From positions 1-64,000 of IMG/VR virus record IMGVR_UViG_3300005289_000003: DNA of 64,000 bases; one strand, given 5' to 3'. Positions 7,688 through 35,584 of the stretch are shown here, piece by piece. Numbering within the stretch: position 1 is the stretch's first letter; each line of letters starts with the position of its first letter. The notes under the pieces were generated by a model that was given only the letters and a program-made list of their open reading frames with translations, ran no database searches and had not been told where the DNA came from. The translations under genes were made by a program, and so were the position numbers. The DNA comes from a virus.

Positions 7688-8155
7688 CTAGAATTTTCCT
7701 TCCGCCACCTGGATACAAATAAGCCCTAGTTCTTCTCGCCACATCTTCACTACCTGATCTCTGTCATCAATAACCAAGAGAATGTTGAAGTCTTTCAGAT
7801 AGGTATCAAATATCTCTTTCTTGACAACAAAGTCAGGTCGGTTGTCTTCATCCTCTCGCATATAAAGATTGACTATCTGATAAGGAAAGATGTAATCGTG
7901 AATCCATCTGATAGTTTCTGCCCGACACTGCTCTTTCCGACCTGAGACAAAAACTATGTTGTAGCCCTCATTGCGGAGGGCACGGACAACATTGATGATC
8001 GGGTAGTTCGGAAAGTCAGTTCCGACAAGATGCCAATCAAAAGGACCACGGTTATCTTTTCTAAGAGCTACTGTCCCATCAACATCAACAATAACTACTT
8101 GTTGTTTAAGTCCTGTCGGATAGATCTTCTTATTCATCGTCTGGTCCCAACCCAC
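7688..8155 (-). CDS. HAD-family polynucleotide 3'-phosphatase (T4 PNK phosphatase-like domain, stand-alone)
   Basis: VIVDVDGT, VSGR, MR..D.RPD...K, IDDR motifs; no kinase P-loop. Confidence 0.85.
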   Translation of the reverse strand: MGWDQTMNKKIYPTGLKQQVVIVDVDGTVALRKDNRGPFDWHLVGTDFPNYPIINVVRALRNEGYNIVFVSGRKEQCRAETIRWIHDYIFPYQIVNLYMREDEDNRPDFVVKKEIFDTYLKDFNILLVIDDRDQVVKMWREELGLICIQVAEGKF

Positions 8156-9288: not shown

Positions 9289-9864
9289 ATGATTGACATG
9301 GGTAAGGATGCTAAGACTGTTCTTAGCGTCAAGCGTCTTTACGTAGGCGTTGGTTGGAAGAGCACGGCCGGTGGCAAAAAGGGTGTGATGGGTGCCATCA
9401 AGCGCCGTCAGGGCACTGACCTTGACGCATGGGCCGTTGCTCTCGATGCCAATGGGGTTGCCCGTGCTATTGCCTGGTTCGACGATCAGGACCCATACGA
9501 GAATGGTTCTCTTCTCGTATCTGATGACGACAAGACGGGCCGTGGTCCTGGGGACGATGAATTCCTGACTGCTGACCTGGAGAGGATTAGCGGGCAGGTT
9601 CAATCCATCATCTTCGGAGTGTCCGCTTACAAGCCGGGTGTGACCTTCCAAAGCATCTCTTCGGTCTCTGCCCGAATCGTGGACCAGGGAGACAACAACC
9701 GGGAACTAGGTAACTTCATGCTTCCCGTGAACGCCAATGTGAATTCGGTAGCCCTCTGCAAGGTCGTGCGTCGTCCGGATAACACGTGGGAGTACACCAC
9801 CACGGAGTTGTTGGGCAATGCCCGCGACAAGGCACAAATCATCAACTTGGCTGCTTCAGCCTGA
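9289..9864 (+). CDS. terD: TerD-family stress protein
   Basis: VGVGW, DLDA, DDKTGRGPGDDE motifs. Confidence 0.85.
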   Translation: MIDMGKDAKTVLSVKRLYVGVGWKSTAGGKKGVMGAIKRRQGTDLDAWAVALDANGVARAIAWFDDQDPYENGSLLVSDDDKTGRGPGDDEFLTADLERISGQVQSIIFGVSAYKPGVTFQSISSVSARIVDQGDNNRELGNFMLPVNANVNSVALCKVVRRPDNTWEYTTTELLGNARDKAQIINLAASA

Positions 9865-29482: not shown

Positions 29483-29569
29483 GGGGAGTTGGCAGAGTGG
29501 CCGAATGCACTAGTCTTGAAAACTAGAGGGGCCTTAAAACCCCCAAGGGTTCAAATCCCTTACTCCCTT
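29483..29569 (+). tRNA. tRNA-Ser(TGA)
   Basis: loop CTTGAAA, long variable arm. Confidence 0.9.
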
Positions 29570-29570
29570 C

Positions 29571-29681
29571 GTGATACAAGAAGATGGTTGTACCTGCTGC
29601 GAGGATGGCGGGTTTACCGAGGGATATGGTAATAGCCATCGGTGCGGCAATTGTGGACACACTGAAGGAGCCCATAAGTAA
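29571..29681 (+). CDS. CxCC/CxxCxH..H microprotein 1 (36 aa)
   Basis: MIQEDGCTCCEDGGFTEGYGNSHRCGNCGHTEGAHK. Confidence 0.7.
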   Translation: MIQEDGCTCCEDGGFTEGYGNSHRCGNCGHTEGAHK

Positions 29682-29821
29682 TGGCCGAATGTACCTGTTG
29701 CACAAATGGTGCCTTTGTTGAAGGACTCAACCCGAACCTGTGTAACAACTGCTTTCACCTGAAGTCGCTTCACTCCATCGTGGTGAGCTTCTTCAAGTTC
29801 TGGAATAGGATTAGCTTCTGA
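29681..29821 (+). CDS. CxCC/CxxCxH..H microprotein 2 (46 aa)
   Basis: MAECTCCTNGAFVEGLNPNLCNNCFHLKSLH...; TAATG coupling. Confidence 0.8.
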   Translation: MAECTCCTNGAFVEGLNPNLCNNCFHLKSLHSIVVSFFKFWNRISF

Positions 29822-29934
29822 TGGGTGTCTGTATCTGCTGCCTCTTTGGTGACTTCAAGGGTGGTGGCGAAAAGGACATCAAGGATATATGCGGGTGTGG
29901 CCATCACAGGAAAGACCACCAGAAGAGGTTTTAA
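29821..29934 (+). CDS. CxCC/CxCxH..H microprotein 3 (37 aa)
   Basis: MGVCICCLFGDFKGGGEKDIKDICGCGHHRKDH...; TGATG coupling. Confidence 0.8.
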   Translation: MGVCICCLFGDFKGGGEKDIKDICGCGHHRKDHQKRF

Positions 29935-30047
29935 TGTTCTTCTTTCTCTTCGGAGCATGTAGTTGCTGCTTGGCAGGCTCCTTCTCTGAGGGTGGCAACG
30001 ACGGTAAGTGCTCCCTCTGCAATCACACGTACGGAGCACACACCTAG
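29934..30047 (+). CDS. CxCC/CxxCxH..H microprotein 4 (37 aa)
   Basis: MFFFLFGACSCCLAGSFSEGGNDGKCSLCNHTYGAHT; TAATG coupling. Confidence 0.8.
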   Translation: MFFFLFGACSCCLAGSFSEGGNDGKCSLCNHTYGAHT

Positions 30048-30052
30048 AAATA

Positions 30053-30141
30053 GGTAGGGTGGCAGAGTGGCCTATTGCGCGTCCCTGCTAAGGACGTAAG
30101 GGAACAACACACCTTCCAGGGTTCGAATCCCTGCCCTACCG
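30053..30141 (+). tRNA. tRNA-Ser(GCT)
   Basis: loop CTGCTAA, long variable arm. Confidence 0.92.
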
Positions 30142-30169
30142 CGCACCATTAAAAAGGAGGAAATAAAGG

Positions 30170-30286
30170 ATGCTTTGGTACCTATTTGCAGGTTGCTACT
30201 GTTGCTTCATCGGTGACTTCATCGAGAGTGATAGCGACCGGAAAACCTGCAAGAGATGTACGCATGTGAGGGGTGCTCATTCTTAA
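30170..30286 (+). CDS. CxCC/CxxCxH..H microprotein 5 (38 aa)
   Basis: AAGGAGG SD; MLWYLFAGCYCCFIGDFIESDSDRKTCKRCTHVRGAHS. Confidence 0.85.
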   Translation: MLWYLFAGCYCCFIGDFIESDSDRKTCKRCTHVRGAHS

Positions 30287-30432
30287 TGGGCTCTTGCTCA
30301 TGCTGTAACTCTGGTGGATTCGAAGCTAGCGCTACAGCCCTCATTTGCAAACATTGTCTTCATGTCAGGTCTGCTCACTCTGGCTACTTCCACTACATGG
30401 CTTCCTTCCTCCGCTACATGACAGGAAGGTAA
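30286..30432 (+). CDS. CxCC/CxxCxH..H microprotein 6 (48 aa)
   Basis: MGSCSCCNSGGFEASATALICKHCLHVRSAH...; TAATG coupling. Confidence 0.8.
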   Translation: MGSCSCCNSGGFEASATALICKHCLHVRSAHSGYFHYMASFLRYMTGR

Positions 30433-30509
30433 ATAGCGTGGAGTATGACGGGCCTCCACGGTGGTGAACGTGCGGCCGTAGGTAGCCACCGAAACAAATC
30501 CCGTCAAAT

Positions 30510-33976: not shown

Positions 33977-35584
33977 ATGGGAAAGCTAGGTAAGCAAAGC
34001 GCAAAGCTTCAGGTGGAAAGTGCGAACAAGAAGGCTGGACTGATTCGCACCAGCGGGGGAAAGACCACCACTCATGAAGGTGGAACCGGGCACCTACGCG
34101 ATACCAAGTCGGAACTATTCCTTCTTGGTGTTACCAACATGGTGTCTGAGCAAACCTTCTATGAGCGCGGTTCGGATCGTGACAAGCGCTTTATGGGTCT
34201 GCTCATCACGGTGACCCATCAGGATGCCGATTGGGTATCTCGGTTCCTACCGTGGCTACGCGGACCAGGCAACATGAGAACCGCTTCTATCGTCGGTGCG
34301 GCTGTCTATGCCCGCACCGTCCTGTCCATGGCTCCTGAGGCACGTGAGGCTCTTTACAGGGCTTTCCCTGGGGCCACGGTCCGGAAGGTTGTGGCGTCCG
34401 TCCTACAGCGTCCCGACGAACCAGCAGAGTTCATCTCCTACTGGCTTCAGGGAAGTGACACCAAGACGCTTCCTGGTGGCGTGCAGCGTGGTCTAGCCGA
34501 CGCGGTAAAGCGTCTGTACACGGAACGGAACTCCCTGAAGTACGACGGACAGAACCAGCCATGGCGTATGTCTGACGTGATTCAGTTGGTTCACCCGGAC
34601 CCTGATACTGAGGTTCAGTCTCTTCTTTTCGATTACCTTGCCAAGAAGCGCTTCAGCGGAAGCGAAGCGGTAATCCCAGACGAACTCTTGATGCTTCAGG
34701 CAAACAGGAAGCTCTACGAAATCCCTCAGGAGCTACGTCGGGAGCGTCTGGCAGCAGACCCGAAGTCAATGGCTACCATTCTCCGGAGTGGTGGCATGAC
34801 CTGGGAATCACTAGCAACGTGGCTAGGTGGTCCTCTGGGTAAGGAAGGTTGGGAGGCAATTGCTCCTAGCCTGGGAATCTTCGCTCTGGTCCGGAACCTT
34901 CGGAACATCAGTGAAGCTGGAGTGAGCAACGAGGTTCAGGAAGCCCTAGCGGCAAAGATTTCTGACCCTCAGGTAATTGCCAACTCTCGTATGTTCCCTC
35001 TTCGCTTCTACACGGCGTATCGGGAAGCCACGAACGTCATATGGAGCTACCCCCTTGAGAAGGCCCTGATGGCTTCTCTGGGGAACATTCCGAAGTTGGA
35101 CGGCCGAACGCTGGTACTGATCGACCAATCAGGTTCGATGAATTTTTCTATGTCGAACAAGTCCACCGTGCGACTCTCGGAACAGGCTGCCTTGTTCGGT
35201 ATCGCTCTGGGCATGGCTGCCGACAATGCGGATGTCTACGTCTACGGGAATTCTCACAAGGAAATCCCGCTACCCAAGGGTGGTTCAATCCTGCCGCTTG
35301 TCGCTAAGTACGGTCAGGCTGATATGGGTGGAACCCAGACATGGACCACTGCCAGATCCCTTTACCGGGGTCATGACAGAATCGTTATCGTGACGGATGA
35401 GCAGAGCCACGATAGCGCGTACGGAATTCCGGATATCCCCATCGTGACCTTCAACGTTGAGGGCTACAAGGCTGCCCACACGGAATCCTCAAAGAAGAGA
35501 ATCACCGTGGGTGGTCTGTCGGATGGTGGGTTCAGCCTGATTCAGGCCATGGACTCCGCCGGTAAGGGTGAGTGGCCTTTCTGA
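33977..35584 (+). CDS. rsr: Ro60/Rsr TROVE-domain RNA-binding protein with vWA domain
   Basis: TTTHEGG.G, FYE, R.D, KY, H P, TWE, ALVRNLRN, SRMFP.RFY; vWA MIDAS DQSGSM, GGT, TDEQ. Confidence 0.93.
   Translation: MGKLGKQSAKLQVESANKKAGLIRTSGGKTTTHEGGTGHLRDTKSELFLLGVTNMVSEQTFYERGSDRDKRFMGLLITVTHQDADWVSRFLPWLRGPGNMRTASIVGAAVYARTVLSMAPEAREALYRAFPGATVRKVVASVLQRPDEPAEFISYWLQGSDTKTLPGGVQRGLADAVKRLYTERNSLKYDGQNQPWRMSDVIQLVHPDPDTEVQSLLFDYLAKKRFSGSEAVIPDELLMLQANRKLYEIPQELRRERLAADPKSMATILRSGGMTWESLATWLGGPLGKEGWEAIAPSLGIFALVRNLRNISEAGVSNEVQEALAAKISDPQVIANSRMFPLRFYTAYREATNVIWSYPLEKALMASLGNIPKLDGRTLVLIDQSGSMNFSMSNKSTVRLSEQAALFGIALGMAADNADVYVYGNSHKEIPLPKGGSILPLVAKYGQADMGGTQTWTTARSLYRGHDRIVIVTDEQSHDSAYGIPDIPIVTFNVEGYKAAHTESSKKRITVGGLSDGGFSLIQAMDSAGKGEWPF

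Follow-up and report, generated by a model that had tools for sequence, protein, structure and literature searches.

Six tandem Cys/His microproteins within the tRNA cluster of an uncultured soil phage: a candidate panel of metal-stabilised binders

The IMG/VR virus record IMGVR_UViG_3300005289_000003 is an 86,444-bp phage genome with direct terminal repeats, rated complete, which was recovered from a soil metagenome; the virus itself is uncultured. The window analysed here is the first 64 kb (64,000 nt) of this record. ARAGORN found 25 tRNA genes in total, 23 of which form a cluster on the + strand at 21.8-38.0 kb. Within this cluster, six + strand open reading frames (ORFs) of 36-48 amino acids (aa), named m1 to m6, span positions 29571-30432, exactly the coordinates given by a first-pass annotation that had been made from the sequence letters and a list of ORFs. 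They fall into two translationally coupled blocks, m1-m4 and m5-m6, each preceded by a tRNA-Ser gene, and all six share one Cys/His motif. The features of the locus, including the Shine-Dalgarno (SD) sequences, are as follows.

29483-29570, + strand: tRNA-Ser(TGA), called by ARAGORN and matched by the Rfam tRNA model at 29483-29569 (57.7 bits); no CCA encoded
29571-29681, + strand: m1, 36 aa, GTG start, acidic with an isoelectric point (pI) of 4.9, without an SD
29664-29670, + strand: SD-like sequence of m2, GAAGGAG, 10 nt upstream of the start
29681-29821, + strand: m2, 46 aa, TAATG overlap with m1, aromatic amphipathic tail
29807-29810, + strand: weak SD of m3, AGGA, 10 nt upstream
29821-29934, + strand: m3, 37 aa, TGATG overlap, variant C-x-C-x-H knuckle and basic tail
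29925-29928, + strand: SD-like sequence of m4, GAGG, 5 nt upstream
29934-30047, + strand: m4, 37 aa, TAATG overlap, hydrophobic N-terminus MFFFLFGA
30053-30142, + strand: tRNA-Ser(GCT), found by ARAGORN and Rfam, beginning 5 nt past the m4 stop and dividing the array in two
30154-30160, + strand: SD of m5, AAGGAGG, 9 nt before the ATG
30170-30286, + strand: m5, 38 aa, hydrophobic N-terminus MLWYLFAG
30268-30273, + strand: SD-like sequence of m6, GAGGGG, 12 nt upstream
30286-30432, + strand: m6, 48 aa, TAATG overlap with m5, aromatic C-terminal tail
30433-30509, + strand: spacer of 77 nt separating the m6 stop from tRNA-Asp, with a predicted stem-loop
30510-30586, + strand: tRNA-Asp, called by ARAGORN

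SD-like sequences were found 5-12 nt ahead of five of the six starts, and four one-base stop/start overlaps connect neighbouring ORFs. The TAATG/TGATG linkage of the first four ORFs, already pointed out in the first-pass annotation, can be read directly in the sequence and agrees with the shared coordinates, and the strong SD that it had ascribed to the two ORFs behind tRNA-Ser(GCT) was found as the AAGGAGG before m5. The 3' end of tRNA-Ser(TGA) (29569/29570) directly adjoins the GTG of m1. Longer alternative starts exist for m4 (29889) and m6 (30256), both of which are less likely, as each would overlap, in a different frame, with the gene before it; the longer m4 form is further disfavoured by the N-terminus M-x3-L-F-[GA]-[AG]-C that m4 and m5 have in common. 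For m5, a TAA that lies in frame two codons before the start rules out a longer form. The hydrophobic N-termini of m4 and m5 and the aromatic C-terminal tails of m2 and m6, both described earlier, were confirmed in the translations. The idea that F-[GA]-[AG]-C marks m4 and m5 as lipoproteins was considered and rejected, because eight residues that lack a charged n-region do not suffice for a signal peptide, and no upstream extension is open to m5.

All six proteins carry the motif C-x-C-C-x2-G-x-F-x(8-11)-C-x(1-2)-C-x-H-x4-H, which holds seven potential metal ligands. A regular-expression scan of the six-frame translation of the whole 86,444-bp genome returned exactly six occurrences, all of them here. 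The six copies are spread over all three forward frames, each in its own start-to-stop ORF, and even the half-motif C.CC..G.F had no occurrence elsewhere in the six frames of the genome. The alignment has eight invariant columns (C, C, C, G, F, C, H and H); in a ninth, the first Cys of CxxC, the residue is displaced by one position in m3. Each protein has five Cys, making up 10-14% of its residues. Outside the invariant columns the paralogues are only 4-35% identical, which is near random, in line with the earlier remark that the intervening residues diverge. They also differ in pI (4.9-8.8) and in net charge (-4.3 to +2.8), with m1 at -4.3, m4 at -1.4, and m3, m5 and m6 mildly basic.

Both synonymous codons are used at all eight invariant residues (TGT/TGC, CAT/CAC, GGC/GGT and TTT/TTC). 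Across the two ungapped blocks of the motif, identity between copies was 0.18-0.59 at third codon positions, compared with 0.47-0.76 at positions 1 and 2. Since these blocks had been picked by amino-acid conservation, the mixing of codons is the cleaner argument. The RNA of m1-m4 folded no better than its shuffles (z = -0.81), and an Rfam search over the array region returned tRNAs only. The combination of mixed synonymous codons with 4-35% identity elsewhere points to selection acting on a protein scaffold rather than on a DNA or RNA repeat.

To look for relatives, a profile of the six was searched against 1.84 billion representative proteins, which recovered m2 itself and two other proteins, P0002 and P0003, at E = 1e-5 each. 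A word-indexed search of 5.8 billion clusters returned the same three proteins. P0002 (163 aa) carries the motif in mid-protein at residues 74-102, and P0003 (90 aa) carries it N-terminally at residues 1-32; both retain every ligand together with the Gly and the Phe, and share the loop G-L-N-P-N-L-C with m2. Each is a single-member cluster from a Joint Genome Institute (JGI) metagenome, the two being encoded on contigs of 9.8 kb and 55 kb, and P0002 used as a query recovered no further relatives. We also observed in P0002 a second, partial copy of the N-terminal half of the motif (W-C-D-C-C-G-A-L-L, residues 42-50), about 30 residues ahead of the full one. Of the six, m2 is nearest to these two proteins: at the variable columns it is 43-48% identical to P0002 and P0003, and at most 26% identical to any paralogue. 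This closer relationship of m2 to proteins outside the array than to its neighbours suggests that the paralogues split long ago and were retained. The first-pass view of a tandemly amplified, diversified mini-domain family is supported by the invariant scaffold residues, the mixed codons, the near-random remainder and the retention of the motif in two metagenomic proteins.

No known family could be assigned to the array. Scans of the six with Pfam, PHROG and NCBIfam gave only sub-threshold noise (FtrD-like, lunapark zinc ribbon and DnaJ finger), and the same held for P0002 and P0003 in Pfam and NCBIfam. A sequence profile search of the PDB found nothing below E = 0.27, and tblastn with P0003 and m5 as queries was negative across 50,697 isolate phage genomes. 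The motif, which the first reading of the sequence had failed to recognise, is accordingly without a match in family libraries and structure searches. The family appears almost unique to one phage, with two metagenomic singletons outside it.

In the viral, metagenome and genome collections, a locus search found only L008, a 2.7-kb fragment of the same phage that differs by two single-nucleotide polymorphisms, both outside the array, and the use of the Ro60 protein of this phage as a synteny anchor in IMG/VR revealed no relatives. Among sequencing runs, DNA runs with array sequence came from the source soil metagenome, plus one 160-nt piece in an aquatic metagenome. The latter, a contig from run X3 with a depth of about 3.7, matches 30013-30154 (the 3' end of m4 and tRNA-Ser(GCT)) with one difference, and the range of this phage, or of a close relative, may extend beyond the source soil.

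We also asked how often motif-like DNA occurs elsewhere. Strict degenerate-DNA scans of IMG/VR with loops of 11, 12 and 13 codons, the three lengths observed in the array, gave 0, 2 and 0 matches, both with stops. The same strict pattern, run over about 185,000 prokaryote species genomes, had 10 matches, all by chance: seven contained stops and three were open off-frame junk. A relaxed scan of IMG/VR for Cys and His only gave 55 loci, and G-x-F was present in none. Motif-like matches in IMG/VR and in bacterial genomes are nearly all stop-ridden or of low complexity, unlike the six of the array. This bears on the possibility that the six ORFs are unexpressed relics or chance frames in tRNA spacers. 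Consistent with such an origin, m2 is the sole member called as a gene in a 15-billion-protein collection, the other five being uncalled by gene finders, and m1 has no SD. The longer antisense ORFs of the array were not called in that collection either. However, all six frames are intact and have kept every ligand despite saturated synonymous change, SDs and coupled starts are present, and homologues occur in annotated proteins elsewhere. We therefore consider relics or chance frames very unlikely.

Based on the seven conserved Cys and His residues, the proteins probably bind metal, most likely zinc. Two arrangements would fit the seven ligands: two zinc ions with one bridging Cys, or a Cys4 site together with a three-ligand site. 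Seven conserved potential ligands within about 30 residues would also suit a metal sink or redox module, such as metallothionein-like zinc or copper buffering or small iron-sulphur proteins, and six copies could raise its capacity. Amplification for dosage, however, predicts similar copies, and these are 4-35% identical outside the ligands; in addition, Cys makes up only 10-14% of the residues, conservation extends to an aromatic residue and to hydrophobic tails, and no match was found to PF02069 or to any iron-sulphur or WhiB-type family in Pfam. The metallothionein-like zinc sink put forward in the first-pass annotation is disfavoured on these grounds, together with the conserved Gly and the depth of the divergence, and we regard a sink or redox role as improbable.

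A different use of the Cys residues would be as cross-link sites in precursors of ribosomally synthesised and post-translationally modified peptides, as in multi-precursor lanthipeptide or ranthipeptide loci, where one finds several short, Cys-rich, paralogous tandem ORFs with variable residues between the Cys, much as seen here. The six proteins show no division into leader and core: the invariant positions run across the whole 30-residue core and the N-termini vary in both length and sequence. Moreover, P0003 and P0002 carry the motif inside proteins of 90 and 163 aa. The Pfam scans of the genome, which covered 18 of the 26 ORFs of at least 250 aa (both strands), the larger ORFs of the tRNA cluster and some shorter ones, found no radical-SAM, YcaO, LanB/C/M or similar domain; where they returned anything, the domains were of replication, repair, lysis, glycosyltransferase, Ro60 and structural types. 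A maturation enzyme might instead come from the host. Such precursors are a most improbable explanation of the array.

As for expression, no promoter- or terminator-like site was found inside the array. The simplest scheme, which we infer to apply here, is therefore that the array is transcribed together with the tRNAs and set free when these are processed. The six ORFs would probably lie on one primary transcript with the tRNAs, excision of which would free an m1-m4 message and an m5-m6 message, each translated with coupling through the TAATG/TGATG overlaps. Because m1 has no SD and abuts a tRNA, its start would coincide with the 5' end that 3' processing of the tRNA leaves, or lie 1 nt away from it, and m1 may be read from a GUG with little or no leader. 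Actinobacteria commonly use leaderless GUG and AUG starts. The segment 30143-30509 folds better than 100 of 100 shuffles (z = -2.44), with a long hairpin lying within the 77-nt spacer at 30433-30509; this stem-loop is possibly a processing or stability element.

Taken together, we put at about an even chance the reading that the six are real genes for cytoplasmic microproteins of a new family, in which a metal-stabilised mini-domain has been diversified into a panel of binders made from the tRNA transcript. In such a panel, the five Cys, two His, Gly and Phe would form the mini-domain, predicted to be a beta-hairpin with a short helix after it. The CxC and CxxC knuckles would provide a Cys4-type site, most likely for zinc, and the remaining Cys/His/His would either complete a second, thiolate-bridged zinc site or form a three-ligand site. 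Divergence would be free in the loop of 8-11 residues, in the stretch between the two His, in both terminal extensions and in net charge, so that each paralogue could bind a different macromolecular target in the infected cell. The spread of pI and net charge argues for different targets, and the invariant ligands, Gly and Phe, seen alongside near-random remaining positions, differing termini and long retention, suggest a metal scaffold diversified for different partners. We hypothesise that the binders serve host takeover, regulation or counter-defence.

A number of observations weigh against a metal-stabilised binder panel. One or two tetrahedral sites of the standard kind cannot accommodate seven ligands unless a Cys bridges or a ligand is supplied from outside. 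Structure prediction yielded low-confidence models that match no fold: AlphaFold2 with an 8-row alignment gave a mean pLDDT (predicted local distance difference test) of 61 for m2 and 67 for m5, with a core of about 70-73 in the latter. Both models consist of two short strands and a terminal helix, to which m2 adds a helical tail. Searches with Foldseek (PDB) and VIA-align wide returned no similar solved structure, a negative that carries little information for models this small and of such low confidence. An m2 homodimer prediction with four zinc ions (score 0.01) counts neither way, and the best score of the P0003 core in the ESM Atlas, 0.82, was under the useful range. Judged by DnaE (42-44% identity), the nearest isolates are the Gordonia phages GMA6, DalanDe, ChisanaKitsune and FlyingTortilla and the Brevibacterium phage Cantare, and the motif is missing from all five. 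The sequencing runs that contain array DNA are DNA runs, with no RNA run among them. The GTG start of m1, lacking an SD, counts on the same side, and the weight of the case is limited by a family known so far from a single uncultured phage plus two metagenomic singletons.

The position of the array within a 23-tRNA cluster, adjoining a Ro60/TROVE gene (33977-35584), and the presence of a PNKP-type phosphatase in the genome raise another possibility, namely that the six are small zinc-finger RNA-binding proteins for the processing, protection or modification of tRNA or Y RNA, or translational regulators like Mu Com. The mildly basic character of m3, m5 and m6 would suit such a role, whereas the net charges of m1 and m4 are poor for RNA binding, and a uniform RNA-binding function fits badly because these two are acidic. 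There is also no conserved basic patch, as only the ligands, Gly and Phe are invariant, and unrelated small phage ORFs commonly sit inside tRNA clusters. RNA binding as the common function of the six seems unlikely to us.

The rest of the genome was surveyed for context. It encodes a DnaE-type polymerase, RecA, DnaB, primase, ThyX, UDG, an amidase, a glycosyltransferase and an ordinary tailed-phage structural module. The Ro60-type TROVE protein (535 aa, + strand) is encoded inside the tRNA cluster just after tRNA-His, and a 155-aa protein at 7688-8155 (- strand) has a match (E = 2e-45) to the PNKP phosphatase (HAD) domain; the PNKP phosphatase, the 25 tRNAs and Ro60 together suggest an investment by the phage in repairing RNA or protecting tRNAs. 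A TerD-domain protein lies at 9289-9864 (+ strand, E = 9e-18). At 63713-67930 (- strand), running past the end of the window, a 1405-aa protein with about seven stretches of collagen triple-helix repeats is probably a tail fibre.

Returning to the binder panel, a bolder version of it can be drawn, which we think doubtful as a whole. Here the domain would be a new binuclear Zn2(Cys5His2) mini-fold of about 30 residues with one bridging thiolate, serving as an evolvable display scaffold with six specificities. The messages would be released from the tRNA precursor by RNase P/Z, m1 would be translated leaderless from a tRNA trailer, and at least some members would counteract host defence or factors that target tRNAs.

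Such arrays matter for several reasons. Phage microproteins are mostly invisible to gene callers, as were five of the six here, and the outcome of host takeover and counter-defence often hinges on small phage proteins. The array adds a very compact Cys5His2 scaffold without a relative in Pfam, PHROGs, NCBIfam or the PDB, and retention of the ligands alone among the paralogues is what a natural library of binders would be expected to show. A metal-folded domain of 36 residues would suit chemical synthesis and nuclear magnetic resonance, making fold and metal stoichiometry directly testable, and an array placed between tRNAs offers a case for studying mRNAs liberated by tRNA processing.

Compared with known metal-finger families, the array resembles several and matches none. 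The signature of the SWIM zinc finger (PF04434) is CxCxnCxH, and SWIM is normally a domain of large proteins. By eye, the CxC...CxH order in all six and the aromatic residue after CxC recall this signature, but the array adds an invariant Cys, Cys and His, and so short a signature is insufficient for membership. The SWIM hidden Markov model (HMM; cut-off 19.6 bits) had no match in the six-frame genome at E <= 10 and matched 14 of 14 control genomes, and no SWIM entry appeared when the six were scanned with Pfam at that same limit. The CSL zinc ribbon of DPH3/Kti11 (PF05207) has the motif C-x-C-G-D-x-F ... C-x2-C. The array likewise has a CxC knuckle, then G-(D)-x-F and later CxxC, with m3 and m5 reading CC-x2-G-D-F, but its spacing is different, a third Cys and two His are invariant, and the context of a diphthamide pathway is absent. 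Like the bacterial metallothioneins SmtA/BmtA (PF02069), the six are small, with Cys and His ligands and a zinc-finger-like core, but their Cys density is far lower (five Cys, as against a Cys9His2-type Zn4 cluster), and they have hydrophobic tails and diverged paralogues. The HMMs of CSL, of prokaryotic metallothionein and of FAM221 (PF14753) had no match in the six-frame genome at E <= 10. P2 Ogr, P4 Delta and Mu Com are phage metal-finger proteins of less than 80 aa that bind RNA polymerase or mRNA, and are single-copy with Cys4 motifs. Members of the array could do that kind of job, and the Pfam scan revealed no sequence similarity between them and the six.

Two other candidate relatives from the relaxed Cys/His scan, L041 (the most protein-like of its 55 loci) and L019, reached 66% and 49% in hhalign but were rejected, as they had been chosen by the pattern itself; in a profile-profile comparison the L041 family (CxCC-x13-CxxC) had an hhalign probability of 14.8%, and CxH is not conserved in it. 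The L041 family (L041:2076-2474, - strand; proteins P0004-P0022) comprises 19 metagenomic or viral clusters of about 95 aa, one member of which is labelled 'Nob1' by JGI. With the invariants C-x-H-D-R, H-K-I-H-x-C-x-C-C-x-N-L-F-V-D-P and C-x2-C, it appears to be an undescribed small zinc-ribbon protein.

The closest parallel in kind is Bacillus phage G, in which a lineage-specific expansion of about 35 small zinc-ribbon proteins has been described (Iyer et al. 2021, PMC7824862), and zinc-ribbon expansions in phages have been proposed to act as transcription factors or DNA binders (PMC7824862). Both phages encode many small paralogous Cys-based metal-finger proteins in one genome, six in the present case. 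The array differs in its Cys5His2 motif (CxCC ... CxxCxH-x4-H), where phage G has two CxxC knuckles, and in having only six copies, which are arranged in tandem, translationally coupled and placed in a tRNA cluster, and encode proteins of at most half the size. Since zinc-ribbon expansions in phages have already been described (PMC7824862), an expansion of small metal fingers in a phage is of a known kind, whereas this family and its Cys5His2 ligand pattern are new.

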